A stretch of DNA of 64,000 nt from Podarcis cretensis (Eukaryota): the NCBI GenBank assembly GCA_951804945.1, contig OX638149.1, positions 93,496,001 through 93,560,000 of the forward strand, given 5' to 3'. Position numbers and translations under genes: made by a program. How positions within the stretch are numbered: position 1 is the stretch's first letter; each line of letters begins with the position of its first letter. Below the pieces are notes generated by a model. That model had not been told where the DNA came from and made no database searches. It worked only from the letters and a program-made list of their open reading frames with translations. This document shows, in pieces, positions 2,134 through 57,914 of the stretch.

Positions 2134-2532
2134 TAGGATGGGTGAATCTGTCAATTTTGGTTTTTCTCAGTTTCTCATGGTTTCAGTGTTATGTTCAGTT
2201 CTCCACATTTCATTTCATTTCAGTTTGATTTTTTTTTAAAGGTAATGAAAATTCACCAGCATTTTAGTGCCATTTCTGTATGCTATTTTGCAAAACAATT
2301 TCCTCCAACAGAATGCATTTTTGCATGTTCTTTTCACTGATATATACATTTTTATACACACTTTACCTCAGTATTTGTATTTTTGTACATAATACTTTGC
2401 AGGAGAACTGCATTGCAAGATTTGGAGAATTTTGAAGGAAGGCCATGTTTCAGCTCGTATTTGTTTCGGAAAGTGTGAATTAGGAAGGTTTCCCTTTAAA
2501 TATGAACTGAATCAAATTTCACCCCATCCCTA
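2134..2532 (+). mobile_element. Non-autonomous hAT-like element, TAGGGATG-terminus family
   Basis: Ends taggatgggtgaa / ccccatcccta; internal sequence shared with other copies in the window (7735-7924, 32502-33191, 38704-39083, 62963-63224). Confidence 0.65.
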
Positions 2533-2600
2533 TGAGACCAAAGTACAGTATACTATAAAATATGATATAATAAAACAGCTGTTGCTGAAAAGATCTAGGT

Positions 2601-2851
2601 CAGAGGTCAGCAAACTTTTTCAGCAGGGGGCCGGGCCACTGACCCTCAGACCTTGTGGGGGGCCGGAGTATATTCTGGAGGAAAAAAATGAACAAATTCC
2701 TATACCCCACAAATAACCCAGAGATGCATTTTAAATAAAAGGACACATTCTACTCATGTAAAAACATGCTGATTCCCGGACCATCCATGGGCTGGATTGA
2801 GAATGCGAATGGGCCGGATCTGGCCCCCCGGCCTTAGTTTGCCTACCCATG
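2601..2851. mobile_element. hAT/Charlie-type MITE
   Basis: Imperfect TIRs cagaggtcagcaaact / agtttgcctacccatg; exact 8-bp TSD atctaggt at 2593-2600 and 2852-2859. Confidence 0.85.
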
Positions 2852-4152: not shown

Positions 4153-4192
4153 GCACGCACGCGCGCGCGCGCGCGCACACACACACACACAC
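4153..4192. repeat. (CG)n-(CA)n alternating purine-pyrimidine microsatellite
   Basis: gcacgcacgcgcgcgcgcgcgcacacacacacacacac read directly. Confidence 0.95.
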
Positions 4193-4621
4193 TCTGTATT
4201 GCTTGGGAAATGAATACTTGAATACCTCTTTCCTCATAATGACAGGCTTGGCTTCAACATCTCATAGGTGTTCTCTGCATGAACACTGAAAGCATTTTAG
4301 GAGTGACATGATAATATCTCCCCCTGCCCCTCCACTGACAAAGGTACACTATCTAATTTCCATCTATTAAATGGAGACGGGAATAGCCTTGTGGAGAGAG
4401 CTTTAATCCCTTAAATGATCCCTGAGAAACATTAGCTGCTTATTTCTTTAATTAGACATTTGCTTCCTTATGCTTCCAGTTGTTTAAGCAGCCACTTAAC
4501 ATAAGACAATCTGTCCTGTTATCATTTATACAGAAGGTGAACAGTCTGCAGGCTGTTTGCTGCAGTACAGTATATAAACATTTACCCCTGACCTATGCAT
4601 TGTATACTTAGCTTAGAATAC

Positions 4622-4759
4622 AGCCATCAGTTGGTAGGGCATGAGGCTCTTCATCTCAGGGTCGTGGGTTTCAGCCCCACATTGGGAAAAAGATTCCTTC
4701 ATTGCAGGGGTTGGACTAGGTGACCCTCATGGTCCTTTCCAGCTCTACTATTCTATGAG
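4622..4759 (+). mobile_element. tRNA-Lys(CTT)-derived SINE with CR1 3' tail
   Basis: Head tcagttggtagggcatgaggctcttcatctcagggtcgtgggtttcagccccacattggg resembles tRNA-Lys-CTT; tail cattgcagggggttggactaggtgaccc...ttctatga is CR1-like. Confidence 0.8.
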
Positions 4760-5038
4760 TCTAATTTCCAAACTCTACACACCAAAACATTGAAAATAAT
4801 AAAATGGTGCCACCTGCTGGATGTCTCTGCACAGCTTAATCTGCTGAATTCCTTACACTTCTCTAGAGAGGTGTCTTTAATACACCACCTATTTGCAAAT
4901 AAGCCTTGGTTATTGGAAAATAATGGAGAGGACGCCTCAGATGACTCTGCTAGAATACAAGGCTACTGCATATGATATGAAATATGAATCAAAGACATTA
5001 ATATAACCCACAAAAGCTCTTTCCGCATGCAGATATCT

Positions 5039-5042
5039 AAAA

Positions 5043-5077
<35 letters not shown>

Positions 5078-5078
5078 A
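5039..5078. repeat. (TAAA)n microsatellite
   Basis: Direct tandem repeat. Confidence 0.95.
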
Positions 5079-6599
5079 ACATCATTTTGTATTGCATATG
5101 CGGAAGCCACACTGAGTACAGATATAGAACATTATGCAATAATTGCCTAGTAAAGATCTGAAGAATCCATGCACATTGTGCATGAAATGCAGGATGCTTG
5201 TAGGACTGAATCATTGCATTTCGGCTTCTTCCTTAAACACCCAATAGTTCTCATGAATTCTAATCTGTCTCAGGTGCTACTGCTGAAAATGCTTGGTATG
5301 AATTCTGTACTGGGTCACACTGGCACAGATACTGACCGTAGCCTGTTCTGATGTGATGCCTTATCCATAAGAGGTTTTTTAAAATATGTATATAATGAAT
5401 CAAAGCATAGGACATACGTGTCCACATATTTGTCCATACACATCACATTGTACATGAAACTCTCAAGGGCAGTTTACATAGGGTTGTCATACGTCCAGAA
5501 TTGTCAGGATTCGGCCATTGGGTGGAAATTGCTTAAATGTCTGGAAAACTAACTTTGCCTAGAAAGCTCAACAAGTTTTGTTTTCACTTTTTGAAATATG
5601 GCAACCCAACAATCATGACAGCTTGTCTGTGTGCCTCTCCAATCGGATCCTTTTAAATTTGTAAAGCTTTTAAAATTTCCATCATGACCTTCCCTTGTAA
5701 GGGTTAAGATCAAACAAGGTGCACTTGTGAGTTTGATGTACACACATACTGATGTTCATGAGCCCTGTGCCCTTGCCCTTTGTTTTGTGACTGGAGTAAC
5801 TGTTTCATTCATCACAACTGTGTCATAAAAGTTTTGGCATCCTGCTGTCACTATAGCCCTCCCACCCCAGTTCCCATGTATAAGAAACCTTGCTGGGGAG
5901 AGAAACAGTTGGGAACTGAAGTGGCTTGTTGAGGATTATTTAAATTTTGGCAGAGAGGTGCGCACCAGCACTGAAACACCGGAGCAATAACTTGGCAAGC
6001 GGTGGGAGCAGAATGTACATGCATTCTGTAAAGGAAATGTTTGGCCTGATGGCAAAAGGCCCAAAGGTATTGCTCTATTTTCCAGCAGGGACTGAAAACA
6101 GAATATTCCATTTTCTGGAATATTCTGCAGTAAAAGAACGTATCTGGAGTAATACAAATTTTGTACTGACATTGCTAAATGGTTCAATAGGATCAGCTGA
6201 TCACCAGTTGGAGAAACTTTGGCTAGCTTTTTCTTTTTTCTTTGAATGTGCAGCATGATCCTTCTAAACAGATTTGAATTCCATGATGTTTATTTAGGGA
6301 TTTATTCCCTGGTAATGGTGCTTACTACTGAGGCCTGAGGGGGGCTCATGGAGACAAAGAACTGCAGCTGTATAAGAAAGAGCAATGCAACATTTGCTGA
6401 ACCACAGATATGGCTGGTAATGAAGTTACAAACACAAGTGATGCATTAAATAGAATTCTATCTGACACCTTATCTGTCTATTGTAATATCCAGATTTCAT
6501 TTTATTGGAGATCACTTCAGCTTGTTCCACGGTGGTTGGGAAGCTGATATGTTTTAATGGAATCCAAACCCTCAACCCTATAAAACCTTTGAGCTTACA

Positions 6600-7332
6600 A
6601 AGCCTTAAACGGCTTGGGAGCACAATACCTCACAGACCATCTCTCATCTGAGGCCCTTCTTCATGTCCCTCTTCTGCAAGACATTTAGAGGGCAGTTACA
6701 CAAGAACATATCTTTTCTGCAGTGGCTCTGCATTTGTGGAATGCTCTCCCCAGGAAGGATGCGGGTGGTGCTGTGGGTTAAACCACAGAGCCTAGGACTT
6801 GCCGATCAGAAGGTTGGCGGTTCAAATCCCCATGACGGGGTGAGCTCCCGTTGCTCAGTCCCTGCTCCTGTCAACCTAGTAGTTTGAAAGAACGTAAAAA
6901 TGCAAGTAGATAAATAGGTACCGCTCTGGCAGGAAGGTAAACGGCGTTTCTGTGCGCTGCTCTGGTTCGCCAGAAGCGGCTTAGTCATGCTGGCCACATG
7001 ACCTGGAAGCTGTATGCCAGCTCCCTCGGCCAATAAAGCGAGATGAGTGCGCAACCCCAGAGTCGGCCACGACTGGACCTAATGGTCAGGGGTCCCTTTA
7101 CCTTTACCTTTTACTCCCCAGGAAGGCTCACCTGACACCTGTTTAGGTGCCAGGCAAAACATTCCTCTTCTCCCAGACCTTTGGCTAATTAAATACTCTA
7201 CGGCCTTTCAAACTGTGTACAAGGAGGTTGTTGTTTTGTTTGCTATTATTTTATGTATTTTTGTGTTTTTATACTGTAAAGTGCCCTGTGATCCTCAGAT
7301 GAAGGGCAGTGTATAAATTAAATAAATAATAA
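6600..7332 (+). mobile_element. L2-type LINE 3' fragment interrupted by a Sauria SINE
   Basis: tttgtggaatgctctcccc...aaaacattcctcttctcccagacctttg...gccctgtgatcctcagatgaagggcagtgtataaatta, then an AAT tail; a related fragment lies at ~38185-38370. Confidence 0.6.
6757..7113 (+). mobile_element. Sauria SINE (full length)
   Basis: Head ggatgcgggtggtgctgtgggttaaaccacagagcc, core gtagataaataggtaccgc, BovB-like agagtcggccacgactgg, (ACCTTT)n tail; TSD ctccccaggaa at 6746-6756 and 7114-7124. Confidence 0.92.
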
Positions 7333-10300
7333 CAGCAACCCACTTTTCGCTATATCTGCCAAGGACCCTGAGCCGCTCCATATGTCTTTTTTATTGTGCA
7401 TTCTTGATTATTTGTGCTCATCATGGTGTCGGGGCAGTTATATGTGATCCCACTTTCAATATCGTTCATATTTCCTGCAGTTTTGGGGTGAAAATACTGC
7501 TACATTGCCAGTCATTGCATGCCCCATAATGTCCTGCTGAAATCTTGTAAGTTTTCGTGTCACAAATGTTCCAGGGGTTTTTGTGTATGTGTGTCCCCCT
7601 TTTATTGTGCTATAGCATTAGAGTGTCCTTCACTGTCAATAGTTAGAAGATCTTGAAGGTGGCAGTAGCAACCCATTATTAAAGCGCACATTGAAAGATG
7701 AACCTACCTAATTCACACTGAGGGAAACAATAAGCAACCTGGAAAACTGCCAACCTTCAACATTCACATTTCCAATTTTTGCAAAGCCGTTCTGCAGTCA
7801 AGCAATGCATCTATAGGGTAATGTGTGCGTTAAGATGCATTTACTAGCAAAAAACAATACAGAAACGCATTGAGTTAGGGGAAATTCCTTTGTCAACTGA
7901 AATTGACAAGTTCACCCATCCCTACCTGAAAGTACTTCCCAGTTTGTCACATCTGTATTGTTATGAGTTTGGGAGTGCTAACCTCCCTAAATTCCTGGAT
8001 CCAGTCAGTGTTAGAATTTAATCACTGTTTGGGATGTTAAGCTGGATGCTAGGCACTACTAATCTCTTGATTCAGCAAGTGCTAAAAGCTAATCAAGCCT
8101 GGCTACCCTCCTGGGTGATGGACCAATAACAAAGGATCAAAGGGATTGTGCTATATACCAGATGGGTGGGGACCCCCCCCCATCAGATAAAGCAGCAAGC
8201 TGGAGAGGGAGAGAAATATTCGATTTCTGTTTGAATCCATCATAGGCTCAGGTTGTATATATGTGTAAATAAACCATATATCATAAAGACACCACAGTCC
8301 CCACTGTGCCTCATTCGAAAAGGAAGTACGAACCATGGGTAAATGCTGGAACCCCTGGAATCTTGCACTGCTTGGAGAGTGGGGTGGTATGCAACACTGG
8401 TTCCTGAAGGAAATTGGGACAGTGTGCAACGGAATTTTATAACGCCAACTGAATGGCCACAACTTAGCAGCCAGGGTTTTACAGCTATGCAAAGCATGTG
8501 CTCAGGTATAACTGAGGCATTACCTACAAAAGGCATAGGAGCTAAGCCACACTAAAGCGGCAGACAATCCATGTGTTGTAATAACTCATACTCATGTTAG
8601 TTTTCCTTATGTATGATACTCCCTAGGGACACTTTTAATTGCCACCTGTTAGATTTAGAATGAGGTTGGGCTGTATCACATATCTTCAGGGCTGGATCTG
8701 GTTTGCAGAGTGCCAGTTGGCTACTCCAGTCTAGGGTTCTTCCAGACAGGTGTTTATTGTGGGCTTGTTGCTGCTCATTGATGAAATAAATAAATAATTT
8801 AAAACCCTTTTGCAGCATCCACATCCGTAGGATTGAAAATACCATCCTATATTTCCCCATTTAATCAGGATTTATGCTTTCGGTGGAAAATCCGATAAGT
8901 TTTAAAAAAACAACCTGTTGCCAACAATCTGTTTGTGACATCAAAACAACCCATTTGCAGTATTAAGCCTTCATGTGGAAGTCACCCAAGAATGTTTCTC
9001 TCTGTTTTCCTTGAAATATCTGTGACCAGTGCTTATACTCATAGGGTGGCTAGAAAAGTACTCAAACATCAAATTACTCAGGGGTTGTTGCTTCTTGTTG
9101 TTGTCCTACACTTCAGCTGAGGGTCACTGAATGCAACAGTGATAGATCACGTCTGGTAGGGGCTGAGAAGCCTTCTGCATGTTGATTACACAACAATTTT
9201 GGGAACTGCACTTCAGGGCGATCATTACTCATCCAGGAAGCAACTTAGCCCAAATGTCCTTGAAATGTTTCCAAATTTTATTCTGGATACTTTACAATGT
9301 CTGCCAGTGTGTGTGTGTGTGTGTTTGTATTTGATTGTGATTTGGAAAAACAAAACAAAAAGAGGATTTGGGATTTGGCTCAGCCTATCTGGTAAAATCT
9401 AAAACGTACATTTGTGACTTGCTGTGCTTGTTCCATAAGGTGGCGTTCATGTTTAGTGCAGGATTTTAAAAACAAGGGCTTTGAAAAGACTGGTTGATGC
9501 ACTCTGCTATGCAGAATCATTCACTAGGAATGGAATCAATGCAGACCAGCTGATATAGCTGAATGTTTGGTTCTTGATTTAAACTGATCCTCAGAAGAAA
9601 ATTTACAGTATTACTTTGAAGATTTATACATTCCATGTTGCTCTTTTTTCCCCCTCTTCAGAAATGGCAAATGCTGTTGTTTCAATATTTCCCAGTTATG
9701 TGACAAATTAAGGCAAAGTCATTGGATCATAAAAGGCTGGTAATAATCACCTATAATTGCTTTCATGTGTTACCTATGCATGAGAAAAATATTTTACTTT
9801 TTTTTATAAAGGAGGAAATACTATTATTCTCACAAGTCCCAATCCACCCCCTCCCATCTGTGTTAAAAATACATGGTCTCTCCTTAGTTAATCAGCAAAT
9901 TTATTAAGACCTGCATTTTGCCATTTGGTAAATGTACGATAGCTCATTTTTGTCCCAGTCAGCTCTCCCAATGCTCGGGGTTGAAGTTGAGAAACTTCAA
10001 AGTTCCTGCTGTCCTTATTATGGTTCCATATCTTTAAACTGGACTCTGACAGCCCTTTAAACAAAGGACTGGATTCTGTCAAGTAGTACAGATGGCCACC
10101 TTAGGCCATCTAATCTCTATTTTTGACCTACCATTCAGGGATGGCGTGAAGATAAAATCAGATATATACCTATGTCTAATGCCCTGAACTCCTTGAACAA
10201 AGGGCTGAATGCAACTAGGGCTACAATCCTAGGTCACAAAGAACCCAGGGAACAGCTGTTTGTTAAGGGGGCTGGGAATTGTAGCTCTCTGAGGGGTTAA

Positions 10301-11506: not shown

Positions 11507-14500
11507 TTCATGGATCACTGCCTTGCCGTGGCGAAGGGGCTTGAAGAACTCAGAGAAGCTATGAACTATGCTGAGCAGGGCACCCAAGATGAACAGGTCA
11601 TAGTGGAGAGTTTTGACCAAACGTGATCCACCTGGAGGAGGAACCGGCAAGCCACTCCAGTATCCCTGCCAAGAAAACTCCATGGACAAAGACAACAGGC
11701 ATATAAAAGTTATGACGCTGGAAGATGAGCCCCTCAGGTCGGAAGGCGTCCAACATGCTACTGGGGAAGAGCGGAGGGCAAGTACAAGTAGATCCAGAGC
11801 TGATGAAGCGGCTGGGCCAAAGCCGAAAGGACGCTCAGTTGCGGATATGCCTGGAAGCGAAAGGAAAGTCCAATGCTGTAAAGAAAAATATTGCATAGGA
11901 ACCTGGAATGTAAGAACCATGAACATGGGTAAGTTGGAGGTGGTCAATGAGATGGCAAGAATAAATATTGACATCCTGGGCATCAGTGAACTAAAATGGA
12001 CGGGAATGGGTGAATTCAGTTCGGATGACCATCATATCTACTACTGTGGGCAAGAAACCCGTAAAAGAAATGGAGTGGCCCTCATAGTCAACAAAAGAGT
12101 GGCAAAAGCTGTACTAGGATGCAATCTCAAAAATGATAGAATGATCTCGATACGAATCCAAGGCAGACCTTTTAACATCACAGTAATCCAAGTTTATGCA
12201 CCAACTACTGGTGCTGAAGAAACTGAAATTGACCAATTCTATGAAGACTTACAACACCTTATAGAAGTGACACCAAAGAAGGATGTTCTTCTCATTATAG
12301 GGGATTGGAATGCTAAAGTAGGGAGTCAAGAGATAAAAGGAACAACTGGCAAGTTTGGCCTTGGAGATCAAAACGAAGCAGGGCAAAGGCTAATAGAGTT
12401 CTGTCAAGAGAACAAGCTGGTCATCACAAACACGCTTTTCCAACAACACAAGAGACGACTCTACACATGGACATCACCAGATGGGCAGCATCGAAATCAG
12501 ATTGATTATATTCTCTGCAGCCAAAGATGGAGAAGCTCTATACAGTCAGCAAAAACAAGACCTGGAGCTGACTGTGGCTCAGATCATCAGCTTCTTATAG
12601 CAAAATTCAAGCTTAAACTGAAGAAAGTAGGAAAAACCACTGGGCCGGTAAGATACAATCTAAGTCAAATCCCTTATGAATACACAGTGGAAGTGAGGAA
12701 CAGGTTTAAGGATTTAGATTTGGTGGACAGAGTGTCTGAAGAACTATGGATGGAGGCTCGTAACATTATACAGGAGGCAGCAACAAAAACCATCCCAATG
12801 AAAAGGAAATGCAAGAAAGCAAAGTGGCTGTCCAATGAGGCCTTACAAATAGCGGGGGAGAGAAGGCAAGCAAAATGCAAGGGAGATCGTAAAACATACA
12901 GGAAATTGAATGCAGATTTCCAAAGAATAGCAAGGAGAGACAAGAAGACCTTCTTAAACAAGCAATGCAAAGAAATAGAGGAAAGCAATAGAATGGGAAG
13001 AACCAGAGATCTGTTCAAGAAAATTGGAGATATGAAAGGAACATTTCGTACAAAGATTTCCATAATAAAGGACAAAAGTGGAAAGGACCTAACAGAAGCA
13101 GAAGACATCAAGAAGAGGTGGCAAGAATACACAGAGGAATTATACCAGAAAGAAACGGATGTCTCATATACCCCAGGTAGTGTGGTTGCTGACCTTGAGC
13201 CAGACATCCTGGAGAGTGAAGTCAAATGGGCCTTAGAAAGCACTGCAAATAACAAGGCCAGTGGAAGTGATGGTATTCCAGCTGAACTATTTAAAATTTT
13301 AAAAGATGATGCTGTTAAGGTGCTACACTCAATATGCCAGCAAGTTTGGAAAACTCAGCAGTGGCCAGAAGATTGGAGAAGATCAGTCTACATCCCAATC
13401 CCAAAGAAGGGCAGTGCCAAAGAATGCTCCAACTATCGCACAATTGCACTAATTTCTCACGCTAGCAAGGTTATGCTTAAAATTCTACAAGGAAGGCTCA
13501 AGCAGTATGTGGACCGAGAACTCCCAGAAGTGCAAGCTGGATTTAGAAGAGGCAGAGGAACCAGAGACCAAATTGCAAACATGCGCTGGATTATGGAGAA
13601 AGCTAGAGAGTTCCAGAAAGACATTTACTTCTGCTTCATTGACTATGCAAAAGCCTTTGACTGTGTCGACCATGGCAAACTATGGCAAGTTCTTAAAGAA
13701 ATGGGAGTGCCTGATCACCTCATCTGTCTCCTGAGAAATCTCTATGTGGGACAAGAAGCTACAGTTAGAACTGGATATGGAACAACTGACTGGTTCAAAA
13801 TTGGGAAAGGAGTACGACAAGGCTGCATTTTGTCTCCCTGCTTATTTAACTTATATGCAGAATTCATCATGCGAAAGGCTGGGCTGGATGAATCCCTAGC
13901 CGGAATTAAGATTGCTGGAAGAAATATCAACAACCTCAGATATGCAGATGACACAACCTTGATGGCAGAAAGTGAGGAGGAATTAAAGAACCTTTTATTG
14001 AGGGTGAAAGAGGAGAGTGCAAAATATGGTCTGAAGCTCAACATCAAAAAAACGAAGATCATGGCACTGGTCCCATCACCTCCTGGCAAATAGAAGGGGA
14101 AGAAATGGAGGCAGTGAGAGATTTTACTTTCTTGGGCTCCATGATCACTGCAGATGGTGACAGCAGCCACGAAATTAAAAGACGCCTGCTTCTTGGGAGA
14201 AGGGCAATGACAGGCCTAGACAGCATCTTGAGAAGTAGAGACATCACCTTGCCAACAAAGGTCCGTATAGTTAAAGCTATGGTTTTCCCAGTAGTGATGT
14301 ATGGAAGTGAGAGCTGGACCATAAAGAAGGCTGATCGCCGAAGAATTGATGCTTTTGAATTATGGTGCTGGAGGAGACTCTTGAGAGTCCCATGGACTGC
14401 AAGAAGATCAAACCTCTCCATTCTGAAGGAAATCAGCCCTGAGTGCTCACTGGAAGGACAGATTGTGAAGCTGAGGCTCCAGTACTTTGGCCACCTCATG

Positions 14501-14730
14501 AGAAGAGAAGACTCCCTGGAGAAGACCCTGATGTTGGGAAAGATGGAGGGCACAAGGAGAAGGGGGCGACAGAGGACGAGATGGTTGGATAGTGTTTTCG
14601 AGGTTACCAGCATGAGTCTGACCAAGCTGCGGGGGGCAGTGGAGGACAGGAGTGCCTGGCGTTCTCTGGTCCATGGGGTCACGAAGAGTCGGACACGACT
14701 AAACGACTAAACAACAACAACAACAACAAC
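11507..14730 (+). mobile_element. Full-length BovB (RTE-clade) LINE, ~3.2 kb
   Basis: 5' UTR tcatggatcactgccttg, EN-RT coding region, 3' end gaagagtcggacacgactaaacgactaa(ACA)n; 10-bp TSD aaccacagcc at 11497-11506 and 14731-14740; inserted into an older hAT-like MITE. Confidence 0.97.
11682..14710 (+). pseudogene. BovB APE-endonuclease/reverse transcriptase ORF with a single 1-bp frameshift at ~14065
   Basis: EN motifs GTWNVRT, LGISELKW, QVYAPT, GDWNAKVG, QIDYIL, GSDH; RT motifs NYRTIALISH, QAGFR, FIDYAKAFD, GVRQGCILSP, YADD (13941-13952). ORFs 11613-14093 and 14105-14710 join (IMATGPITSWQIEGEEMEAV) if one base is restored. Confidence 0.93.
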
Positions 14731-17886: not shown

Positions 17887-19138
17887 GAGCTTTGTGGAAT
17901 GTGGTTGCACTAACATCACACTGGGGTATGAAATGAATGGCCCTGCCTGTGTGAAGCTTCCTGCTGCTCCTTCATCAAGTTAGGATTGACAAGAAAGTCA
18001 GCTGGCACCATTGACCCTTTGCACTCAGCCAACCTCTCTCTAGCAGCTATCCCGAGTATTCATTGTCAAAGTAGCTGCTGCTATCTCTGTATTAAGAAAA
18101 ACAACCTTGTGGACATCGTAACTGTCCTATCCAATTAGTTTTCCTTTATGTCAGGCACAGTGTGGCGACACTTGCAAGCTTGGCTATCAAAAGAAAACCA
18201 CCGTCCATCTGGGTTTTGTGGTATGTGCCAGCCATATCTATTTATAAAAACCCTGGGGCCACTTAGTGACAGCAACCTTCATTCTAAAATTCAATTTATC
18301 ATTTCCTAATAAACAAACAGTTATAGTTTCAGTGACATGATACCCATGTTATCTCCTTGCTCAAAAATTATAGAGCAGGCACCCTATTTTTCCCCCTTTG
18401 TCAATTGTTAACATGGAACTTCTTCCACTAGTGTTTTTAGCTGACAGATCAGCTGCAATCCTTCTTGGAAAGTGATGACTGTCTTCTAGTAATGATGAAA
18501 TTTGGCGTTACACGGGCCTGGCTTTGAAAAGTGTGTGGAAGTGACAACAGGGTACAAAAAGAGGTGGCCATGCTGATAACTGTGGCTGGCTGCAAAAAAC
18601 AAATACAACACTGGTGTTAGAAATCTTCACTGGCATAAGTAACAAGAAGAAAACACCAAGCCACTTCTTCGAGAGAAAAGAATGATAAAAAGAGAGGACC
18701 AAATGTTAGGTATCTTTCTGAATATTGTTCTTGCTATGTATTTTTCCTTTGGCTTTTGAACTATCTGCACTCAGACATCACATCAAACCATAGTTTATCA
18801 TGAGGGCAACAACCCTAGGCTTCTCCTGGGCTCATGTGCTCTCTCACTCCTCTGGGCATGACCACAAAAAGGGATTCAGAAGGTTTTGCGTCTTCTTCTT
18901 TATCAAGCACAGCTTCTTGTCCAAACCCAATAGACCAATTTATCGTAGTAATGGTTTGTTTGAAAGGAACCACATTCAAACCCTGGTTTATGAAGCTTCT
19001 TCTTTCAGCAAACCATAGTTAAGATTAACCTTGGTTTAAGATTCAGAAGGAATGTTAAACCATGCTTAATTGAAATCTTAAAACAAACCTTCCAATTTCC
19101 TCTTAGTGGGTGTGCTGTGTGGAAAGTGTGGGGTGGTT

Positions 19139-19826
19139 GTTGTTTAGTCGTTTAGTCGTGTCCGACTCTTCGTGACCCCATGGACCAGAGAACGCCAGGC
19201 ACTCCTGTCCTCCACTGCCCCTCGCAGCTTGGTCAGACTCATGCTGGTAACCTCGAAAACACTATCCAACCATCTCGTCCTCTGTCGCCCCCTTCTCCTT
19301 GTGCCCTCCATCTTTCCCAACATCAGGGTCTTCTCCAGGGAGTCTTCTCTTCTCATGAGGTGGCCAAAGTACTGGAGCCTCAGCTTCACAATCTGTCCTT
19401 CCAGTGAGCACTCAGGGCTGATTTCCTTCAGAATGGAGAGGTTTGATCTTCTTGCAGTCCATGGGACTCTCAAGAGTCTCCTCCAGCACCATAATTCAAA
19501 AGCATCAATTCTTCGGCGATCAGCCTTCTTTATGGTCCAGCTCTCACTTCCATACATCACTACTGGGAAAACCATAGCTTTAACTATACGGACCTTTGTT
19601 GGCAAGGTGATGTCTCTACTTCTCAAGATGCTGTCTAGGCCTGTCATTGCCCTTCTCCCAAGAAGCAGGCGTCTTTTAATTTCGTGGCTGCTGTCACCAT
19701 CTGCAGTGATCATGGAGCCCAAGAAAGTAAAATCTCTCACTGCCTCCATTTCTGATTTTACTTTCTTGGGCTCCATGATCACTGCAGATGGTGACAGCAG
19801 CCACGAAATTAAAAGACGCCTGCTTC
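19139..19826 (-). mobile_element. 5'-truncated BovB with inverted (fold-back) 5' segment
   Basis: Near-identical to the 3' 600 bp of the full-length copy; 11-bp TSD gtggggtggtt at 19128-19138 and 19827-19837; 19754-19826 is the reverse complement of 19662-19734. Confidence 0.96.
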
Positions 19827-21203
19827 GTGGGGTGGTTATTTGTGCCCAAAGGAATGCTAGGTTTTGTTCATTCCCATCACAACAAAATGTGGATTGTCAC
19901 AATGTACAAATGTAGCCCATTTCAGTACCTGGATCTTGATCTTGCTTCTTCAGCAATGGAGTCTGAAGTGCTTCTCTTTGATTACAGAGCCCAGGTATAA
20001 ATTATCTCTGGTGAAAGCTGGTGCTAAATAACAGGCTGTATTACTAATTAGGGTAAATGTCATAGCAAGAGCATGCTGACATTGTTACGATTAATGGCCC
20101 AGTGCATTACTATTTAAAACACCTTTGGAAGTTAATGGAATTGTATTAATTGTGCTGTTGAAGGGACTGAGGCAAGTGGAGTCCATCATTCCTGGGCTTT
20201 CTGGAGCAGCACCTCTTGTCATTATGTTAGAACTGGATGCCATGCAAGTTCTTTATGCTTTAAAGATGTTCTCCTCTGCAATCATTTCTCAAATTAATAT
20301 AGCAGCTGTGCTCTGCTCCCTAGTGGAAAGGGAAGGAATCCAGCTGGATTCTTCCAGTAGCACAAATCCTTCTTAGTGGACAGATTACGTGCACATTCTC
20401 CATGAGGTCTAGTGAAAGTACACAATTGCCAGCTGTTGTGCACATTAACTGATCAGTTTACATTACACATACCTTCTAAGAAGGTTGGGTAGGATACATG
20501 GAGTTTGTCACATTTTATCCTAACAATGACCTTGCATGGTAGGTTTAGACTACCATGAAGGGCATCCACTGAGCTTCATAGCTGAATAAGGATTTGAACT
20601 CGGGCCTCCTCTGTCCATCACTTTATGTACTTTATCACACTGGCCCTGACAAAGATGGTAGCTGTAGATGAAAATGAAGCTTTTCATTTCCCCAGTGGGT
20701 GAGAGGGTGGTGGTAACCAAGCAGGCCTCAAGAGGCTACAATTCATCTGCCCAGATTTATGTTAAATGCACCAGCAAAAGACCAGTAAATGTTTTTCAGA
20801 TGACAAAAGATAAAAGCATGATAATATCAAATAGAAATTAAAAGTATGAATCATGAGGAATGAGAAATCCAAGAAATAATGATGTGGTTATTACATGGAG
20901 GGATTATGACATGCAAGATTAAAATCAAATACTGAATTCTGTATTGTCTGACCTAAACTTTACCAGATTTCTAGTTAAAGCTTACTACATAACCTTAATT
21001 TTTCTGGCTGCATGGCCTTTTAGAGAACATCATAGCTAACAAAGTGAGATCACAGCAAATAGGCTCCCGTGGACTCAAATGCATGTTGCTAGAGATCAGT
21101 CTGGTGTCCAGAGTAGAGGATCCAGGAAAATCCAAAGAGAAAATAAGTTCAGTTAAAAATTAAAGAAAAAATGTTTCAAAATAAAAGAAAGAAATATGAA
21201 CCT

Positions 21204-42300: not shown

Positions 42301-45300
42301 AATGGAAAAGACAGAACAATTTCATTGATTAGCATATGTTGTATTGGTGTAATCTAGGGAATCTACAATATTCACAATATATTAAGGCCTGGAATGGCAG
42401 GCAGGGGGAAGAGGGTAACATCCAGCTATTGCCAACGAAGTTCTACGTAGAGTAGACCTATTGAAATTAATGAGCCTAAGTTATGCATTTTCAATAATTT
42501 CAATGTGTCTACTCTGAGTATGACTGACACTGAATAAAACCCATTAGGTCATGATGATGATGACAGCAGCATTTATATGTTGCCCATCTGACCAAGTCCT
42601 CTGGGCACTTTACAAAGACAATAAAATACAAAAACAGAACAAAACAAAACAAAACAAAACACCTAAACCTAAAAACCAAAAAATAAAAGCCCAGCAATGC
42701 CATCCCCAAAGCAGCACAAGACACAGCTGATAAAAGAATTATAATCAGCACAACCAGCATAAACCAGGGGATGCTGGTTGCAAAAAATGAACCTTCTCTG
42801 GTTTATTCTAGTATTGTTCTCATTTACTTGGCAAAATTATGCACCTTAGTCAATCCAGGCACTGTTCTCCATTACCTGTCTTACATCTCCTTCAATGTCT
42901 GCTTCTCTCTCCCCTGTTGAATGTGTGTGGTGCATTATTATCCTAACTTCCATGGGACATGATAATGAGTGGCATGCAGTGCCTCTGTTTCATTCACATA
43001 ACATGCTTCTGCTTGGCACAAAGGAACTTCCTCCCCTGTATAGCTTTTACACACCCTTACAATTTGCCCCAGGGAATCTCTGGAAAGTCCTGTTGCATGA
43101 ATGGAATTTTGCTTACACAGCATTGAATACAACCCAAGCTGTTTACTCTTTTTCTTGGGTGTTTCCTTTGTGTGAGTATGATTAGCGTTCTTACTAAAGC
43201 CACCAAATGCAGACCACTGACCAAATTCTGGTGGGCCATCTGGTGGATGGTGGGATACTCAAGATCCCTTGCTGTTGCCTCAGACAACATAGGGACTTAG
43301 AGATCATATGGGGACCATAGGGTCTGAGAGAGAACATGTGTGGCTGAATTCAGCATACCCTTAGTGCAAATAGGATATAAGGGTGACAAAAAGGATTGGA
43401 TCTAGACTTAGTTATGCTTAGAGCAGACCCACAGAAATCTTGTTGATTGTGACTATCTTAAGTTGCATTGATTTCTGTGGGTCTACTCTAAGCATGACTA
43501 AGTCTGAATGCAACAGAATAGTTAACATTATTGTCAGCGAGTCATAAGAATTCTGGATGTTTACATGCTCTACAAATTTCATTCTATGGGAGAAACATAA
43601 ACCATGTCCTGAAATTGTGTGATAATTTTTAATCATGCTGGACATGGAAAGAGTGTGTAAATGCAGATCCTAGGCTTATTTCTGTAGCTCCATCACTGGA
43701 ACAGACCTCCAGTTGACCAATATATTCTGGCTCTTGCAGGCATACCTGTTTACGATAGAGAAATTAACGCAAACAACTGGGATTACAGGTTGGACAGGGG
43801 CTACTATTATCCAGAAAAGAATCGGTTTTGGACATGTGAAAGGCGTCGGTGGGCAGAAGACTGGCGGCGCTGGGCAAGCCAATGGCGAGACTGGGCAGAA
43901 GAGTGTCGAGACTGGGCTGAAGGAAAGCAACATGAGAAAGACAAGTGCTTTTCTGGGGCTAATGCTGGTCATCACTGGGCAAAAGCAACACAGGGTCCAA
44001 AGGCTAGTGAGGAACATCTCAGGTCAGACAGGGGTTGTCCTAGGCCAGGGGAAGGGAAATGTGATCTGAAAGAAGGACATAAGACTAATAAGGGACTATC
44101 TCGCCCAGAAGTGGAACACTCCAAGTCAGATAAAGGGTATTTTGTGTTTCCCAAGCCAGGTGAGAATTCTGGACCAGACGAAGGGCATCTCAAGGCAAAC
44201 AAGAGGCAACAAAGAGTGGACGAGGGGCATTCCCCATCAGATAAGAACAACTCAGGAGTTGTTAGGCTGGGGGGGGGACATACAGATCAGGACAAGGGGC
44301 ATGCCACAAGGAAAAAAGAGCAGCCTAGGCAGGATGAGGGGCAGCCCAGGCTAGATAAGGGGTCCCTCAGTTACAAGAAACCAGACCCTGTGTGTAATGA
44401 ATCAGCTATGAAGCCCAAGGTGGTTTCTGAACACAACCATCAGGCTTGGAATAGGGAGCCTCATGCTGGGAAACAGAAGCAACCGGCAGAAAGAAGCAAC
44501 CCACGTGCTGTGAAAAGCGAAAAACTGCTCAGAAAGAATGAGCCGAAGGATGACAAGCCGGAGTCCAAAGGTGAGAAGAACAGGCTTACTTTAGAGTCTG
44601 AACCTGGGAAGGGAACAGAATTCAATGGTATGAAGGGAAAGGCTTGCGTTGATACTAAAGTGGCTCCTCAAACACATCTGACTTCCTCTGGTGGCAAAGT
44701 GCTGCCACTGAAAAGGAAAGAGCCCCAGATTCGGGTAAGAAAGCTGTATGGCAAGAGGAGCAAGTCTCAAGCTGGAAGGAGGTCGTCGCACGGTGGTAGG
44801 AGCAAGTCCCGGGCAGGGAAGAATAGGGTGCCTGATGGGCAAAGTAAGACAGAGCCTGCGGGGAGCAGCTCATCTAAAGGACTCGATGAAGAACAGCCTG
44901 AGGGGAATGACTTAGCTAAAGACCCCGGTGAAGGAAAGCCTGAGAGGAACGACTCAGTTGAAGGACGCAGTTTAGGAGAGCCTGAGGGGAATGGCTCAGC
45001 TAATGGAAGCAGGGAGGTGCCACCTGAGGGGAAGCAGACACAGGCAGATTCTAAGGGTGCACTGCAAGGTCGGAAAAAGGGACCTCTATCAGCTCTCCTG
45101 GGGGGTGACATTTCTCTCCCAACAAAACACAGACTGCTCAGAAGAACAACACAATCTCGCCTCTTATCTGAAGTCCAGGGTGAAAAACATCAGTACGTAT
45201 CTGAAACGAGCCAGTTCATCAGCATGAATGACCAACGGAGAAGGAGACTGACCAAACTCCCTCAGTCTGGTACACAGCTTCCAAGTATTGAAGGCCAGAA

Positions 45301-45337
45301 ACTTGGAGCGAATCAGTTCCCAAATGTGACTCATTGA
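36318..45337 (+). CDS. DnaJ (Hsp40) subfamily B protein, divergent DNAJB2-like paralog; spliced CDS join(36318-36382,36921-37030,38577-38630,39783-39866,40842-40935,41867-41937,43740-45337), 691 aa
   Basis: All introns are GT-AG with compatible phases; 2076 nt = 692 codons with no internal stop; J-domain with HPD; NGKKITTKR and EVEEDG motifs of the DNAJB2/6/8 C-terminal domain. Confidence 0.85.
36510..36690 (+). mobile_element. tRNA-derived squamate SINE in DNAJB intron
   Basis: gccatagttcagaagtagagtacctgccttgcatttagaaggccccatgtttaattcctggcatctccagg...gatggaccaatgatctgactcagtataaggcaggttcctatgt. Confidence 0.75.
36921..37030 (+). CDS. DNAJB2-like coding exon 2 ([36 protein letters not shown])
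   Basis: 110 nt, ttcag| ... |gtaagg; HPD at 36946-36954. Confidence 0.95.
38577..38630 (+). CDS. DNAJB2-like coding exon 3 ([18 protein letters not shown])
   Basis: 54 nt, phase 1-1, ttttccag| ... |gtgagt; R..YD of J-domain helix IV; ends at c.229 as recalled for DNAJB2. Confidence 0.88.
39783..39866 (+). CDS. DNAJB2-like coding exon 4 ([28 protein letters not shown])
   Basis: 84 nt, phase 1-1, long polypyrimidine tract + ag, donor cag|gtaatc, open frame; little recognisable homology. Confidence 0.72.
39957..40103. mobile_element. hAT-like MITE
   Basis: Ends cagggctttttt / aaatagcactg; 8-bp TSD caagtacc/caggtacc. Confidence 0.75.
40842..40935 (+). CDS. DNAJB2-like coding exon 5 ([32 protein letters not shown])
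   Basis: 94 nt, tttcag| ... ag|gtaagg; NGKKITTKR motif of the DNAJB2/6/8 CTD. Confidence 0.9.
41463..41720. mobile_element. Tigger/pogo-type MITE (opposite orientation to the 22847 copy)
   Basis: TA-cagtggtacctc ... ggtaccattg-TA; internal 17-bp tandem ggttacatacgcttca x3. Confidence 0.9.
41867..41937 (+). CDS. DNAJB2-like coding exon 6 ([24 protein letters not shown])
   Basis: 71 nt, the size conserved in DNAJB2/6; EVEEDG motif; tttcag| ... g|gtaaat. Confidence 0.92.
43740..45337 (+). CDS. DNAJB2-like terminal coding exon (~532 aa Trp-heptad plus charged low-complexity tail)
   Basis: Acceptor ctcttgcag|gc is in phase with exon 6 (GIPVYDRE...) and continuous with the 515-aa ORF 43790-45337; AATAAA downstream. 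Confidence 0.85.
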
Positions 45338-48388: not shown

Positions 48389-49057
48389 TAAGTCAGACTC
48401 AGTGGAAACGCACTGGCATGTCCTACTTAATTGCATTGATTTCAATGGGTCTGCTCTATAACTTAGCTGAATACAAACCCCAGTGCAGTTAAAGGTTTAG
48501 TATCTTCTGTCTATGATTATTACAGACCCTTAGTTTAACATCTGAAACCCTAACCTTCATGCTTTATGCGGTGTTATTAGTTGATGCTGTCAAGATTTGT
48601 CTGTGTGGGCATGTGACAGGGAGCTACAGCGATGGTGCTTCAGTGTTGCTGGTTCTGGGTAGGGGAAAGTAGAGCATGAGTGAAAGGGCTAGCAATAATT
48701 TGGGCCAGAGGCCTAGATGTGTGGTCCCATCCCCTAACTGTAGGGGAACATGGCGGGCTCCCCCCCCCCCGCAAAAAAGGAGTGGCGGCAAAACTAGGCC
48801 TTCTGGAGTTGGGGCCCTGATGGAATTGTTATGGGAGAGTGGTTCCTGTATGCAATAAATTGGTCACTTGCATGCCTTGGATGGAGATATACTCTCTGAA
48901 GGAGCAGATTCACATTTTGGGCATGCTTTGGGATCCAGCTTTGTCACCAGAGGCTCAGATGGCCTCAGTGGCTAGGACCACCTTTTATCATTCTTGGCTT
49001 TTGTGCTAGCTGCAACTGTTCTGGGACCAGGATAGCTTGACTGCAATACTCCAGGTA

Positions 49058-49395
49058 CAGTGGTGCCCCGCAAGACAAATGCCTCGCAAGACGGAAAACT
49101 CGCTAGACGAAATAGTTTTCCGTTTTGGAGGTGCTTCGCAAAACGAATTTCCTATGGGCTTGCTTCGCAAGACGAAAATGTCTTGCGAGTTCCTGCGGGG
49201 TTTTTTTCCCTCCCCCCCCTTTTTCTAAGCCGCTAAGCCGCTTATCCGATAAGCCGCTAAAAGCCGCTAAAAGCCGCTAAACCGCTAATAGCGCTAATCC
49301 GCTAAGCCGTCAATGGGCTTGCTTCGCAAGACGACAAAACCGCTAGATGAAGAGAATCGCGGAACAGATTCTTTTCGTCTTGCGAGGCACCACTG
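49058..49395. mobile_element. Tigger/pogo-type MITE with internal (AAGCCGCT) repeats
   Basis: TA-cagtggtgccccgcaagac ... gtcttgcgaggcaccactg-TA. Confidence 0.9.
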
Positions 49396-49850
49396 TACTG
49401 ACAACTTCAAAACTGGGTTACTTCAATGCACTCTATGTAGTTACTATGATGCACTGCTTGTGATTGGTCTGGAAAATACAGTGCAGAGCAATGCAGCATG
49501 AATGTTCACAGAAGTGAGACTCTGTCCATACATATATCACAACCCTGCTCAAGAGATCTGCACAGGCTGCCAATTTGTTACCAGGCCAGATTCAAGATAT
49601 TTGTATGTAAGGCTCTCAATACCTTAAGGACCACTCTGCTGCTAGACTATTGAACAGAATAGTAACCACAAAAAGTGGCCTTTTCCTGACAGAAATGATT
49701 GTGTGTATCCACCCAAATAGTGGAAAACCCATTACAGAATTAGAGTGATTGACCTTGGCAATTATTAAAGAAGTTGTAAGAAGCTGGTATTTTCCCTGTA
49801 GATGCATTAAATTAAAATTAGATCTCAATGGCTTGTGAGCAAATAATCTT

Positions 49851-51269
49851 TTTGCGTGGCAAGTTTCCTCCCCCAGTTGAAATGAAGACACGGACACGTT
49901 GCTTTAAGGTTAATGGGCGTGAAAGGCCACAACTTTATTGATTACGGAATTGAAGGTATTGGCCTTAGGCATTGGCTTCTATCGACTACCCGGCATGGTG
50001 ACCGGGAAGGGTTGAACACACCGCAGGAGTCCTGTTGAAGTACGCCAACTAGGGTCCCACGGGTGTCACCGCTCGGGGGCGTGCCGGAGGCCCTACCTCT
50101 CCAGGCTTCGGACAAGGCCACGCCCCCCCCTGGGAGTCCTCTACCGGACTACCCCTTCTCATTGGGGGAAGGTGATGGCGCTCCCTTCCCCCCTCCTTTT
50201 TCCTATAATTTGCCCCATGCCAATGCCTAACCGCCAACACCGTGAAAGTTGTGACGATTGCTACGAGGTAGGCGAAAAAACCAACTGGCAGGAAGTGCGC
50301 CAATTTGGAAAAATTCCTACCAGGCCCCTTGCGGCGACCAACCGAAGTCCATAGCAAGGCCAATTCTAGCTAAGCCTAAGGGTGGGTGGGATGGGAAAAC
50401 CGCTCAGCTGTTGGGGCGAGGGGAAAAGAGGGCGGTCCCTGGGCGTGCCTGGCCTTAAGTAGCCCAGGCCGCGCCTCCCCTCGCCCACCGATTGGCGGGC
50501 TGGGTTGCAGGCACGCCCAGGGATTCCCCAACTCTCGCGGGGGCAAGGGAAGCCCCCGCGAATGTGGGAGGGTCCTGCTCGCAACGTCCTCTCCTCTCCA
50601 TGCTCGGAAAGGGCTTTGCGTGGCAAGTTTCCTCCCCCAGTTGAAATGAAGACACGGACACGTTGCTTTAAGGTTAATGGGCGTGAAAGGCCACAACTTT
50701 ATTGATTACGGAATTGAAGGTATTGGCCTTAGGCATTGGCTTCTATCGACTACCCGGCATGGTGACCGGGAAGGGTTGAACACACCGCAGGAGTCCTGTT
50801 GAAGTACGCCAACTAGGGTCCCACGGGTGTCACCGCTCGGGGGCGTGCCGGAGGCCCTACCTCTCCAGGCTTCGGACAAGGCCACGCCCCCCCTGGGAGT
50901 CCTCTACCGGACTACCCCTTCTCATTGGGGGAAGGTGATGGCGCTCCCTTCCCCCCTCCTTTTTCCTATAATTTGCCCCATGCCAATGCCTAACCGCCAC
51001 AAGAGCAAGGCTCGCCGCCAATACCTTCAGGCCCGTAACCAACCCCTAATCCCGCTCAGCTGTTGGGGCGAGGGGAAAAGAGGGCGGTCCCTGGGCGTGC
51101 CTGGCCTTAAGTAGCCCAGGCCGCGCCTCCCCTCGCCCACCGATTGGCGGGCTGGGTTGCAGGCACGCCCAGGGATTCCCCAACTCTCGCGGGGGCAAGG
51201 GAAGCCCCCGCGAATGTGGGAGGGTCCTGCTCGCAACGTCCTCTCCTCTCCATGCTCGGAAAGGGCTTT
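49851..51269 (-). mobile_element. Non-autonomous split-direct-repeat (Ngaro/PAT-like, DIRS order) retroelement
   Basis: Minus-strand order: A1 (51269-51052), 52 bp, B1 (50999-50615), A2 (50617-50400), 163 bp, B2 (50236-49851). Repeats essentially identical; TTT shared at both ends and at the B1/A2 junction; AATAAA in B. Confidence 0.75.
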
Positions 51270-54013: not shown

Positions 54014-54850
54014 CAGTGGTGCCCCACAAGACGAACGCCTCGCAAGACGGAAAACCCGCTAGACGAAAGGGTTTTCTGTTTTGAAGGCGCTTCGCAAAAC
54101 GAATTTCCCTATGGGCTTGCTTCACAAGATGAAAATGTCTTGCGAGTTCCTGCGGGTTTTTTCTTTCTTTTTCTTTTTTTTTAATAATTTTTATTCATTT
54201 TTCAAACACATAATAAAAACAAAGCACAAAACAGAAAGTCAAAACACAAAACAAAAACATACAAAACATTTAAACAAATATAACTTCAAAATTGTATTTT
54301 CATACACCTTCTTTCCTTCGACTTCCCCATACCTCCCCATCCCTGCATCCTTGTTTTATGATTCTTTAGCAACCCTTTGGTCAATTTATCCTGATTCCCT
54401 TTCATTAAATTTCCTTTAGTTTTTTAGTTACAGCTGTAATTCTCTGTTTCTTACCCCTTGACATCTTAGCATTCCTCAATTTTACAACAGTTTTTAAGGT
54501 ATATTTTAAATTTCTTCCAGTCCTCTTCCACTGTCTCCTTCTCCTGGTCACGGATTCTGCCCGTCATCTCAGCCAGTCCCATAAAGTCCATCACCTTTGT
54601 TTGCCATTCTTCCAGAGTAGTTTTCTACTTCCTGCGGGTTTTTTCCCCTTTGCCCCCCTTTTCCTAAGCCGCTAAGCCGCTTATCAGCTGATCCGCTGAT
54701 AAGCCGCTTAACAGCTGATCGCTAAAAGCCACTAAACTGCTAATAGCGCTAATCCGCTAAGCTGTCAATGGGCTTGCTTCGCAAGACGAAAAAACCGCTA
54801 TACGAAGAGCCTCACGGAACGGATTAATTTCGTCTTGCGAGGCACCACTG
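54014..54850. mobile_element. Tigger/pogo-type MITE (family of 49058-49395) interrupted by L1
   Basis: TIRs cagtggtgccccacaagac / gtcttgcgaggcaccactg; colinear with the 49058 copy apart from the insert. Confidence 0.88.
54164..54628 (-). mobile_element. 5'-truncated L1 LINE 3' end
   Basis: Minus strand encodes TLEEWQTKVMDFMGLAEMTGRIRDQEKETVEEDWKKFKIYLKNCCKIEEC*, then a T-rich UTR, AATAAA and poly(A); 17-bp TSD ttcctgcgggttttttc (54147-54163, 54629-54645). Confidence 0.85.
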
Positions 54851-55993
54851 TGTTTTAAATCCACAATTTTTATTTTTTATTTCATTTTGTGATACGCTAG
54901 TTAGAGGGAGTTTTGTTTTTTTGTTTTTTACAGTCAAGGGGCATATAAACATCGCTCATGAAATAAATAAATGAAAGTTACAGGAGACGCCAAGGAGAAC
55001 TCGGGAACAGCATGTGTCTTTGTTGCAGAATTGTGTTGAGGATAAGTATAGTTCCAACCTGTGAAAGGTTCAGCTGTTCTTTTTCGGTTTTAAACTAATT
55101 GTGAATTGTGTTTTCAAAACTTTGAAGACTGCTGCTTTCACTGTAAAATATGAATCAGCCGGTGGAGATATTGTGGGAGGGCCTTTCCCCTCAGGCAACT
55201 GATGGAGCCCTTTCACATCCTTCTCCTCTGACACTCATGAAGGTGCACTGCAAAGCATCCTTGCCATTACGGAAAATGCAAGGCCATTTTAGAAGTTACA
55301 ATGGTTTGGGATGTTCCAGCACCCCAAAGTCCACTCCAGAACTGAACCCCCCCCCCCCAATTCATGTGTTCTGTAAATTTTCGTGGTGCATTGCTGCGTG
55401 CTTTCTGGCACAGCCAAAAAAAGGGATTTTTATTCATCATATGATGCCATAGCGTACATTATTATGCTGACATTACTGCTCCCACATGACATCTCTGACC
55501 ATTAACTACTATGGCAACAAATTACCTATACTTGGCCTGCTCTTTAGTTTTGCAAAGGCTCATTCTCCTAACAAACAGGAATGTGCCAGGCTATCTGTTT
55601 AGCAAAAGAAACTGGATGCTGGATGTTAAGTCCTCATGCAACAAAATAAAAATCAATATGGGGGAAAAACAGCTGTGCAGGAAAAAAGGGGGGATAGAAA
55701 ATCCTCCTTTCTCATGTGGGACAGGACAAAAGAGAACAGTCTGAACCACATGTGGAATAGGAATCAGGGATTTGCCAAGTATAATGCAGCAATGAAGGAT
55801 AAGAATAAAAACATCAGTGTGGAAAGGGTGGGCAATCAAAAAGAAAAATATATACATTGTATGTTAAGTAAATGTGTTATTATTTTTTTAAAAAACCTAA
55901 TAAAAATTAATAATGAAAAAAAGGAAGCATCCCTAATGCAGTGGCCCTTCCTTTCCTGGGCTCCAGGTGAGCAAATAATATATCTTGCATACT

Positions 55994-56290: not shown

Positions 56291-57119
56291 GGGCCTAGCA
56301 AGGAACAGGCCACTATATATTAAGGAGATGTGTGCATAGCCCTCACGTTCTTGGTAATGATGAAATACCTTGCAATGCATGCAGCAGTAGTTGAAGGCTG
56401 GTGGGAGAGACAGAAAGGACTCAGTATTCCTTGTGGGGAAGCACTTCCACAAGTGCAGATTTATGAGTGTGGAGCAATGCATGAGGAAGCAATAGATCTT
56501 GCCCATTATTCAAACATTATATTGTGCAGTCCTACACATAATCTGCACAGAAGTAAGCCCCAGGGAGTTCAGAGGGAATTTCTCCTAGGTAAATATGTAC
56601 AGGATTGCACCAGACTTCATTTCTTAAAGAATTTCAATAAAATGTAATGTGAATAAGATATGAACAGAATTCAATACATTCCTAACCATGTCTACACAGA
56701 AACACCTCCTACTGAATTCAGCGGGGTTATTCCCACGTAATGGGGTTAGTATTGCAGTGTTAACATATTAAGCACTCTTCCTAGGGTTTTATTACCCCCC
56801 TAGCACAAAATAAATGGGTTTTTACCATCTACATTCTGTCCCTCTGGTTCTTGCTAAGCATTAAGATCACTTCTCAGGGACTCCGTAAAAACAACACGAA
56901 AATCAGCACAGTAGGTTTAATCTGACAGACAGCCTTGGAAAGAGTTTCAGAAAAAGAATAAATTGGTGAGGCTTTTGCGGTGTAGAAAGATGACGGCCTA
57001 AAGGTAAAGCAGGGTGGGGCATCAGATTGGTGCTGCTGAGGTCATTTGTTAATTAATGGTGCCTCACTTCAGATCTTACTCATAGCTAGCTAATGAGAGA
57101 AGTGAACACCAATGCATAT

Positions 57120-57390
57120 GTTGTTGTTGTTGTTTAGTCGTTTAGTCGTGTCCGACTCTTCGTGACCCCATGGACCAGAGAACGCCAGGCACTCCTGTCC
57201 TCCACTGCCCCCCGCAGCTTGGTCAGACTCATGCTGGTAACCTCGAAAACACTATCCAACCATCTCGTCCTCTGTCGTCCCCTTCTCCTTGTGCCCTCCA
57301 TCTTTCCCAACATCAGGGTCTTCTCCAGGGAGTCTTCTCTTCTCATGAGGTGGCCAAAGTACTGGAGCCTCAACTTCACAATTTGTCCTT
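57120..57390 (-). mobile_element. 5'-truncated BovB 3' end
   Basis: About 3 differences from the full-length copy; (CAA)n tail; 13-bp TSD caccaatgcatat at 57107-57119 and 57391-57403. Confidence 0.96.
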
Positions 57391-57914
57391 CACCAATGCA
57401 TATACTTAAGCAATAATCCACAAAACCCCATCCTTGCACTTTCTCTAAATGGGAGCAACACTATATGTTATGCTGAACACACAGGGCTGCCTCTAAAAAT
57501 GTTGCCCAATGTTGAGTTATTCCATCTCAACGCCATGCTCATTTAGGCACGTCTTCTCCTGTTGTGTGGTATCATCACAGGGGTGCCAACTTGAATAAAA
57601 TATTGGGAGGGGCCCAGGTAAGCCCCACACTGCTTAACTGATCACAAGATGTGGCATGCAGACACCTTTTGAATACCAATGCTCATCATCTTTGGCGGGA
57701 GGCCGAAGGAGTAGGCTCCTATATATGATAACATTTGGTGTTTCCCCACTGCTGCCATCAGGAGCCAAATATGGAGTGATGGCAGAAAAGTTCACATCCC
57801 AACCACCTTGCAATGCATGTTGCAAGTATGGCTAAAAACTACATGGGAGAAGAGGGAGAACTAGACAAGCAGCTGCCATTTTTAGCAGAAGCCTTGCGTC
57901 AGATATGAACAGAA

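Follow-up and report, generated by a model that had tools for sequence, protein, structure and literature searches.

The 64,000-nucleotide stretch of the Podarcis cretensis genome analysed here (the window) holds an element at positions 49851-51269 of the minus strand that poses a question of origin. How did a retrotransposon copy come to keep all of its cis repeats and its B-A junction when its coding capacity is gone, in a genome that also carries an autonomous partner? The element as a whole is assigned as a Ngaro retrotransposon copy; compared with L031, a full-length natural copy, it lacks a single internal stretch of 6,840 bp (L031 sense positions 219-7058). Its longest stop-to-stop frame has 112 codons, and no second match to it was present elsewhere in the 64-kb window.

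In the sense direction, the element opens with the A1 repeat (51052-51269), in which 218 of 223 nt are present, the last 5 nt having been lost at the deletion. A1 bears a CCAAT box (51143-51147), a TATA-like TACTTAA (51107-51113), and a 16-bp inverted repeat, all on the minus strand and with a putative promoter role. It is followed by a 52-bp remnant of the internal region (51000-51051) and by the B1 repeat (50615-50999, 385 nt), whose AATAAA lies at 50698-50703. The A2 repeat adjoins B1 via a common AAA, forming the internal B-A junction. The A2-B2 spacer (50237-50394) is conserved in full-length and solo copies. The B2 repeat (49851-50236, 386 nt) has its AATAAA at 49934-49939. On the plus strand, the TTT core common to the target site occupies 49851-49853 and is repeated at 51267-51269; the triplet shared by B1 and A2 (TTT, sense AAA) is also found at both outer ends. 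The four-repeat layout given in the preliminary description (X1 at 49851-50236, Y1 at 50400-50617, X2 at 50615-50999, and Y2 at 51052-51269) was present as described. Y1 and Y2 were identical, and X1 and X2 differed by one 1-nt gap. Its coordinates hold for the repeats, but its lengths needed correction: the true A repeat has 223 nt (A2 being 50395-50617), and the A2-B2 spacer has 158 nt, not 163. The intact CpGs that it mentioned were also confirmed, with an observed/expected CpG ratio of 0.67 in the element vs 0.28 in the window.

The parent family was sought in the same genome (1.5 Gb) with X1-spacer-Y1 as the query, and 40 candidates were scored. Dispersed copies were found at 100% down to 84% identity, so A and B do occur across the genome, as had been anticipated. 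Two full-length copies, L031 and L032, measure 8.26 kb each and are 99.77% identical. The minus-strand order of L031 is A1 (223 nt), a 5′ region of 2.1 kb, four frames (gag-like, RT/RNase H, recombinase and SGNH hydrolase, with 538, 621, 335 and 207 codons, respectively), B1, A2, the 158-bp spacer, and B2. Its split direct repeats are both 100% identical (A, 1-223 = 7493-7715; B, 7111-7494 = 7874-8257). The only match above the Pfam cut-off in L031 was RVT_1 (E 1e-12). Below the cut-off, the 335-codon recombinase frame matched Phage_int_SAM_4 (E 0.003) and Phage_integrase (E 0.011), and the 207-codon frame that follows it matched Lipase_GDSL_2 (GDSL/SGNH; E 8e-4). The recombinase frame contains all of the residues R, K, HxxR, W and Y, which we take to be the catalytic set of tyrosine recombinases. 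The first frame (538 codons) had no Pfam match and is gag-like by its position and Cys/His motifs. No Dam-type methyltransferase match was found in the L031 frames at E up to 0.1. Lacertid lizards (69-74% across the full query), other squamates and amphibians supply the closest relatives of the RT/RH; Xenopus proteins are 49-51% identical, and the homologue list gives no class names. An AA(A) core of 2-3 nt is common to the ends of the copies listed.

Judged by these sequence features, the parent is a Ngaro tyrosine-recombinase retrotransposon. The repeat order of L031 and L032, the RVT_1 match, and the recombinase residues bear out the Ngaro class and the minus-strand sense proposed earlier. 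The autonomous partner with RT/RNase H and recombinase frames expected there is represented by the same two copies, and the lacertid relatives of the RT bear out a lizard-type host. The PAT grouping also offered did not hold, as a methyltransferase was not found and an SGNH frame follows the recombinase. A PAT-like or DIRS1-like identity was likewise rejected because the repeats are direct, rather than inverted termini with an ICR. An LTR retrotransposon or endogenous retrovirus was rejected on the split repeats, the AAA core, the recombinase frame, and the lack of a DDE-integrase match. The genome also carries at least two sister Ngaro families (L094, L125, L141, L142, L170, L172), about 68-73% alike, with repeat pairs 98-100% identical in most copies. 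Common to these families are the motif that precedes B1 and, next to AATAAA, its complement. We also observed that L031, L034, L035, L082 and, in another comparison, L170 vs L172 have a near-identical A repeat and unrelated 5′ UTRs that switch exactly at the A tail.

The window copy corresponds to L031 1-218 joined to 7057-end, at 99-99.8% identity. The 52-bp spacer thus represents the 3′-terminal 25 nt of the SGNH-hydrolase frame, stop codon included (51027-51051), followed by the 3′ UTR. It had been described as the collapsed gag/RT/YR core; instead, it is the unaltered 3′ end of the internal region. The deletion junction (51050-51053) has 2 nt of microhomology and had a single match in the 1.5-Gb genome at up to 2 mismatches in one assembly. 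The A-spacer-B unit of the window copy was free of substitutions relative to three solo copies and had one relative to another internally deleted, short copy (mini). Five copies lie within one substitution, three solos and two minis, with no full-length copy among them. Both intact copies, L031 and L032, carry two A variants that are missing from the window copy, so neither is its direct source, and no direct source was present among the 23 loci compared.

The insertion is very recent and polymorphic. The empty site was found in contigs of all four public runs examined (three samples under one species label and one under another), with 49850 joined to 51267 and 3 letters in common. This, together with the unit having 0 substitutions against three solos, supports the recent and possibly polymorphic insertion that had been suspected. 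Integration thus used a short common core of 3 letters, with no integrase-type 4-6 bp duplication. The window has other features. At a distance of 450 bp from the insertion is a 344-bp element with 25-nt terminal inverted repeats (49055-49398), probably a non-autonomous DNA transposon, to which pieces at 54014-54851 are related. A young LINE, presumably RTE/BovB-like (11604-14721), has endonuclease and RT-like frames (829 and 244 codons) and is accompanied by two truncated copies, 98-99.7% identical (19133-19831 and 57119-57391). A 549-codon open frame rich in charged residues (43688-45337, plus strand) is possibly a large host exon.

The B-A junction pattern occurred at 15 places in the genome at up to 1 mismatch: seven full or nearly full-length copies, seven internally deleted ones (the window copy and six others in the same family), and one 5′-truncated copy without A1. 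At the same tolerance, there were 248 matches to B ends and 135 to the A-spacer junction. The commonest form among the 40 best loci was the solo A-spacer-B unit of about 765 bp (e.g. L002-L004, L007, L008), seen at 31 of them. A 20-nt motif next to B1 was discarded as a family-specific counter, as many of its 85 exact matches belong to sister Ngaro families; for this reason, its 527 matches are not a copy number of the window's family.

The motif just upstream of B1 was used to collect breakpoints. From its 85 exact matches, 72 loci were taken and mapped with 8 one-mismatch loci and 20 loci of the window's family, giving 100 loci that pool several sister families. The table was curated by hand; the breakpoints of L143, L159, L079 and L084 are approximate, L106 was excluded for want of a matching reference, and L120 and L146 were both counted. 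The mapped loci comprised 23 full or nearly full copies, 22 without A1, 54 with A1 and an internal deletion, and the one excluded. As the loci were picked by the motif beside B1, deletions that remove it are under-counted. The left break fell within A nt 190-228, the last ~40 nt of A, in 37 of the 54 deleted copies; were left breaks uniform, 0.56 would be expected there (P about 3e-63). The remainder lay upstream in A (6/54) or beyond A (11/54), the latter meaning that other routes to deletion exist, and none fell in nt 229-550, where 4.6 were expected. Right breaks span the internal region and lean towards its 3′ end, with 22 of 43 A-capped copies keeping ≤ 1 kb before B1. Out of 41 junctions tried, 40 were resolved: 22 clean, 9 of them with 2-4 nt of microhomology (16% at random), and 18 with inserted or mismatching letters, some of which are mere differences from the reference used. 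These clustered breaks likely mark a step of the little-tested copying mechanism of this class.

The window holds a single, very recent Ngaro insertion lacking 6.84 kb of its middle, and we consider it probable that this copy was shortened during reverse transcription and not broken afterwards. The CCAAT and TATA-like motifs suggest a transcript start near A nt 190, so that nt 190-228 would be common to the RNA 5′ end and A2. A search for RNA records that contain the stretch found none listed. The full-length element would be transcribed from this putative start, which lies past the TATA-like box and close to the A1 end, up to the poly(A) signal of B2. The signal of B1 would be masked by a stem with the sequence just upstream of B1, allowing the transcript to pass. 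First-strand cDNA, begun in B2, would then cross the spacer, A2 and B1 and enter the internal region. In the DIRS-1 model, missing ends are restored from an internal template, and the circle is integrated by the recombinase at a trinucleotide core (PMC7192593). With direct repeats, a model of this type needs a strand transfer at the common A tail; in the normal step, the cDNA end would attach to the A tail (nt 190-228), with B1-A2 as the template for its completion. In the window copy, the cDNA would have stopped 52 nt past B1, and its short end would have been linked to nt 218 of A by a 2-nt microhomology. The restored B-A junction would then have been the substrate for integration by the family's recombinase at a genomic TTT/AAA, leaving exact ends. 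Early-ended cDNA joined at the A tail would explain the fixed left break, the variable, 3′-leaning right break, and the exact outer ends. The spread of right breaks fits a polymerase that falls off early rather than small local deletions, and the 5′ UTR switch of full-length relatives exactly at the A tail also counts for joining there. We must also note that the 18 of 40 non-clean junctions fit end-joining repair as well, which speaks against a copy born short.

The stem required for passing B1 is a predicted one. When B1 was folded with its upstream sequence, the retained 52 nt formed a 24-pair stem (z -2.9) in which an arm within the 52-bp remnant (about 51017-51043, minus strand) pairs with B1 and covers the AAT of its AATAAA. 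In B2 folded with its own upstream spacer, the masking stem was absent and AATAAA was unpaired. The distal arm and B's own closing stem were paired in 99% of cells across 19 copies from several families, compared with 21-45% when slid. The stem showed only one two-sided change; 205 of 500 shuffles do at least as well, and copies so closely related are not independent. A conserved stem formed by the 52 bp with B1 is predicted to cover the poly(A) signal of B1.

Promoter-proximal breakage occurs in other settings, and a full-length insertion could have lost its middle later by double-strand-break repair, with breaks favoured just downstream of an active A1 promoter. We regard this as unlikely. 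It stays the main rival because 11 of 54 breaks start beyond A and because junctions with 0-4 nt of microhomology or short inserts fit end-joining. Nevertheless, the left breaks end sharply at the A end, as the empty interval at nt 229-550 indicates, and the right breaks favour very long deletions. Moreover, the nearest copies (≤ 1 substitution) are solos or minis and none is full length, which leaves little time for a second event, and all four runs show the empty allele.

A self-standing miniature family amplified in trans is improbable. Such a family would agree with the intact repeats and B-A junction and with the recurrence of minis of similar size (L005, L074, L093, L120), and precedents exist in DIRS-1, for which RT activity in trans is the subject of a section of PMC7192593, and in TOC1, a non-autonomous DIRS element (PMC9940879). 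Yet the junction between A1 and the 52 bp is single-copy, so no amplified mini-family is seen in the assembly, and the propagating cis-only family proposed in the preliminary description is not borne out, since each of the other short copies has its own breakpoints. The sole pair with nearly the same junction, L120 and L146 of a sister family, shows a 1-nt difference there and three further differences in A, of which two match different subfamily variants and one is a C-run length. Given the different A variants, the two look independent, and we rejected them as mother and daughter with a common junction. The window copy retains the cis parts required by the model, and its mobilisation in trans is possible in principle; no daughter copy was found in the genome assembly.

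An assembly artefact or a tandem duplication of a solo unit has very little to recommend it. The deletion junction was bridged by 0 of the 23 contig pieces listed from the four other runs, but such an absence from contigs carries no weight. The order A1-internal end-B1A2-spacer-B2 is collinear with full-length copies at 99.8%, the ends fit the empty site exactly, and six further internally deleted copies with the B-A junction exist in the same family. Least probable of all is retrotransposition of a spliced RNA, since the clustering of left breaks near the suggested transcript start is offset by their spread over about 40 nt rather than at one donor, and a canonical spliceosomal origin is contradicted by the absence of GT-AG in any register of the window junction and at all 22 clean junctions.

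Within the proposed replication scheme, a cDNA capped already at A2 would yield a solo A-spacer-B unit directly, which fits solos with no divergence; the solos may therefore be the extreme case of prematurely ended, A-capped cDNA. By exact-pattern rows, solos outnumber B-only copies at about 81 vs 18, counts from patterns that differ in sensitivity and with the solos mostly uninspected. Because the B repeats are longer and closer, such a ratio would favour direct solo formation, and we take it as a hint only. Of 20 tested 5′-truncated Ngaro copies that lack A1, 8 (L087, L104, L116, L133, L134, L137, L161, L165) combine a precise B end with a host duplication of 44-399 bp adjoining the truncated end, compared with 1 of 56 A-capped or full copies. 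These duplications may reflect one-ended recombinase integration of uncapped cDNA. L033, a 5′-truncated copy with no A1 in 20 kb, showed no host duplication. One truncated copy, with an identical 5′ junction, is present at both L132 and L133 (C8:13.8 and 14.4 Mb), and five B ends are found in a span of 0.7 Mb; the region is likely a segmental duplication array.

With clearly less assurance, and as hardly an even bet, we propose a general scheme in which split-repeat recombinase retrotransposons would cap their cDNA at the repeat-A tail in a retrovirus-like strand transfer, and most new copies would be born defective. A-capped short cDNA would give minis, A2-capped cDNA solos, and uncapped cDNA B-end integrations with 44-399 bp host duplications, and a conserved RNA stem would hide the first poly(A) signal and let the transcript extend to B2. 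In a search to which the subscription literature was largely external, we found no published Ngaro account of A-tail breakpoint clustering, of long host duplications at uncapped ends, or of the masking stem.

Several parts of this picture have known counterparts. The TOC1 element has a split-repeat structure; it is non-coding and belongs to the same order of elements as the window copy, but TOC1 is an amplified and mobile family, whereas the window copy is single-copy. In Chlamydomonas, TOC1 is described as a non-autonomous DIRS retrotransposon (PMC9940879). The Xenopus tropicalis DIRS-53_XT has the order A1-ORFs-B1A2B2 with identical repeats (A 236 bp, B 152 bp) and gag-like, RT/RH, YR and SGNH hydrolase frames, with no methyltransferase (PMC9210276). 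Its four-frame layout resembles that of L031, to which the lizard family adds the conserved 158-bp A2-B2 spacer and the 2.1-kb 5′ region; the window copy, in contrast, lost all frames. Many amphibian Ngaro copies with lost repeats are reported in the same source, whose relevant part contains no breakpoint mapping (PMC9210276), whereas breakpoints were mapped here for the lizard family. In Cafeteria burkhardae, solo AB repeats and a 5′-deleted type 2b Ngaro (~2-kb deletion over ORF1) occur beside full-length copies, the solos being ascribed to recombination between 5′ and 3′ repeats (PMC8547959). The lizard breakpoint pattern instead suggests formation during replication, with deletions of up to 6.9 kb. 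SIRE of Trypanosoma cruzi is an A2-B2 derivative of VIPER, and the pertinent part of PMC6681497 leaves open whether it is mobile or a remnant. Like the lizard solo class, it is a short A-spacer-B unit from a split-repeat recombinase element; unlike the window copy, it lacks both repeat pairs and the B-A junction, and it belongs to a different superfamily. In defective HIV-1 proviruses, the starts of deletions are concentrated at a strand-transfer landmark and have been interpreted as reverse-transcription errors (PMC12657518). The classes are unrelated, as HIV-1 relies on LTRs, tRNA priming and an integrase, and the lizard element on split repeats and a tyrosine recombinase.

The window locus itself is ordinary debris, one dead-end copy, and its insertion is usable as a polymorphic marker. 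The replication model of recombinase retrotransposons has been tested for DIRS-1, an inverted-repeat element (PMC7192593). With dozens of its failed copies mapped, this recently active family yields sharp predictions on the transcript start, the strand-transfer site, and the origin of solos, the last being the question left open for SIRE in the part of PMC6681497 concerned. The Ngaro class, solos, and deleted copies are already known; this lizard family offers testable evidence on how split-repeat retrotransposons replicate.
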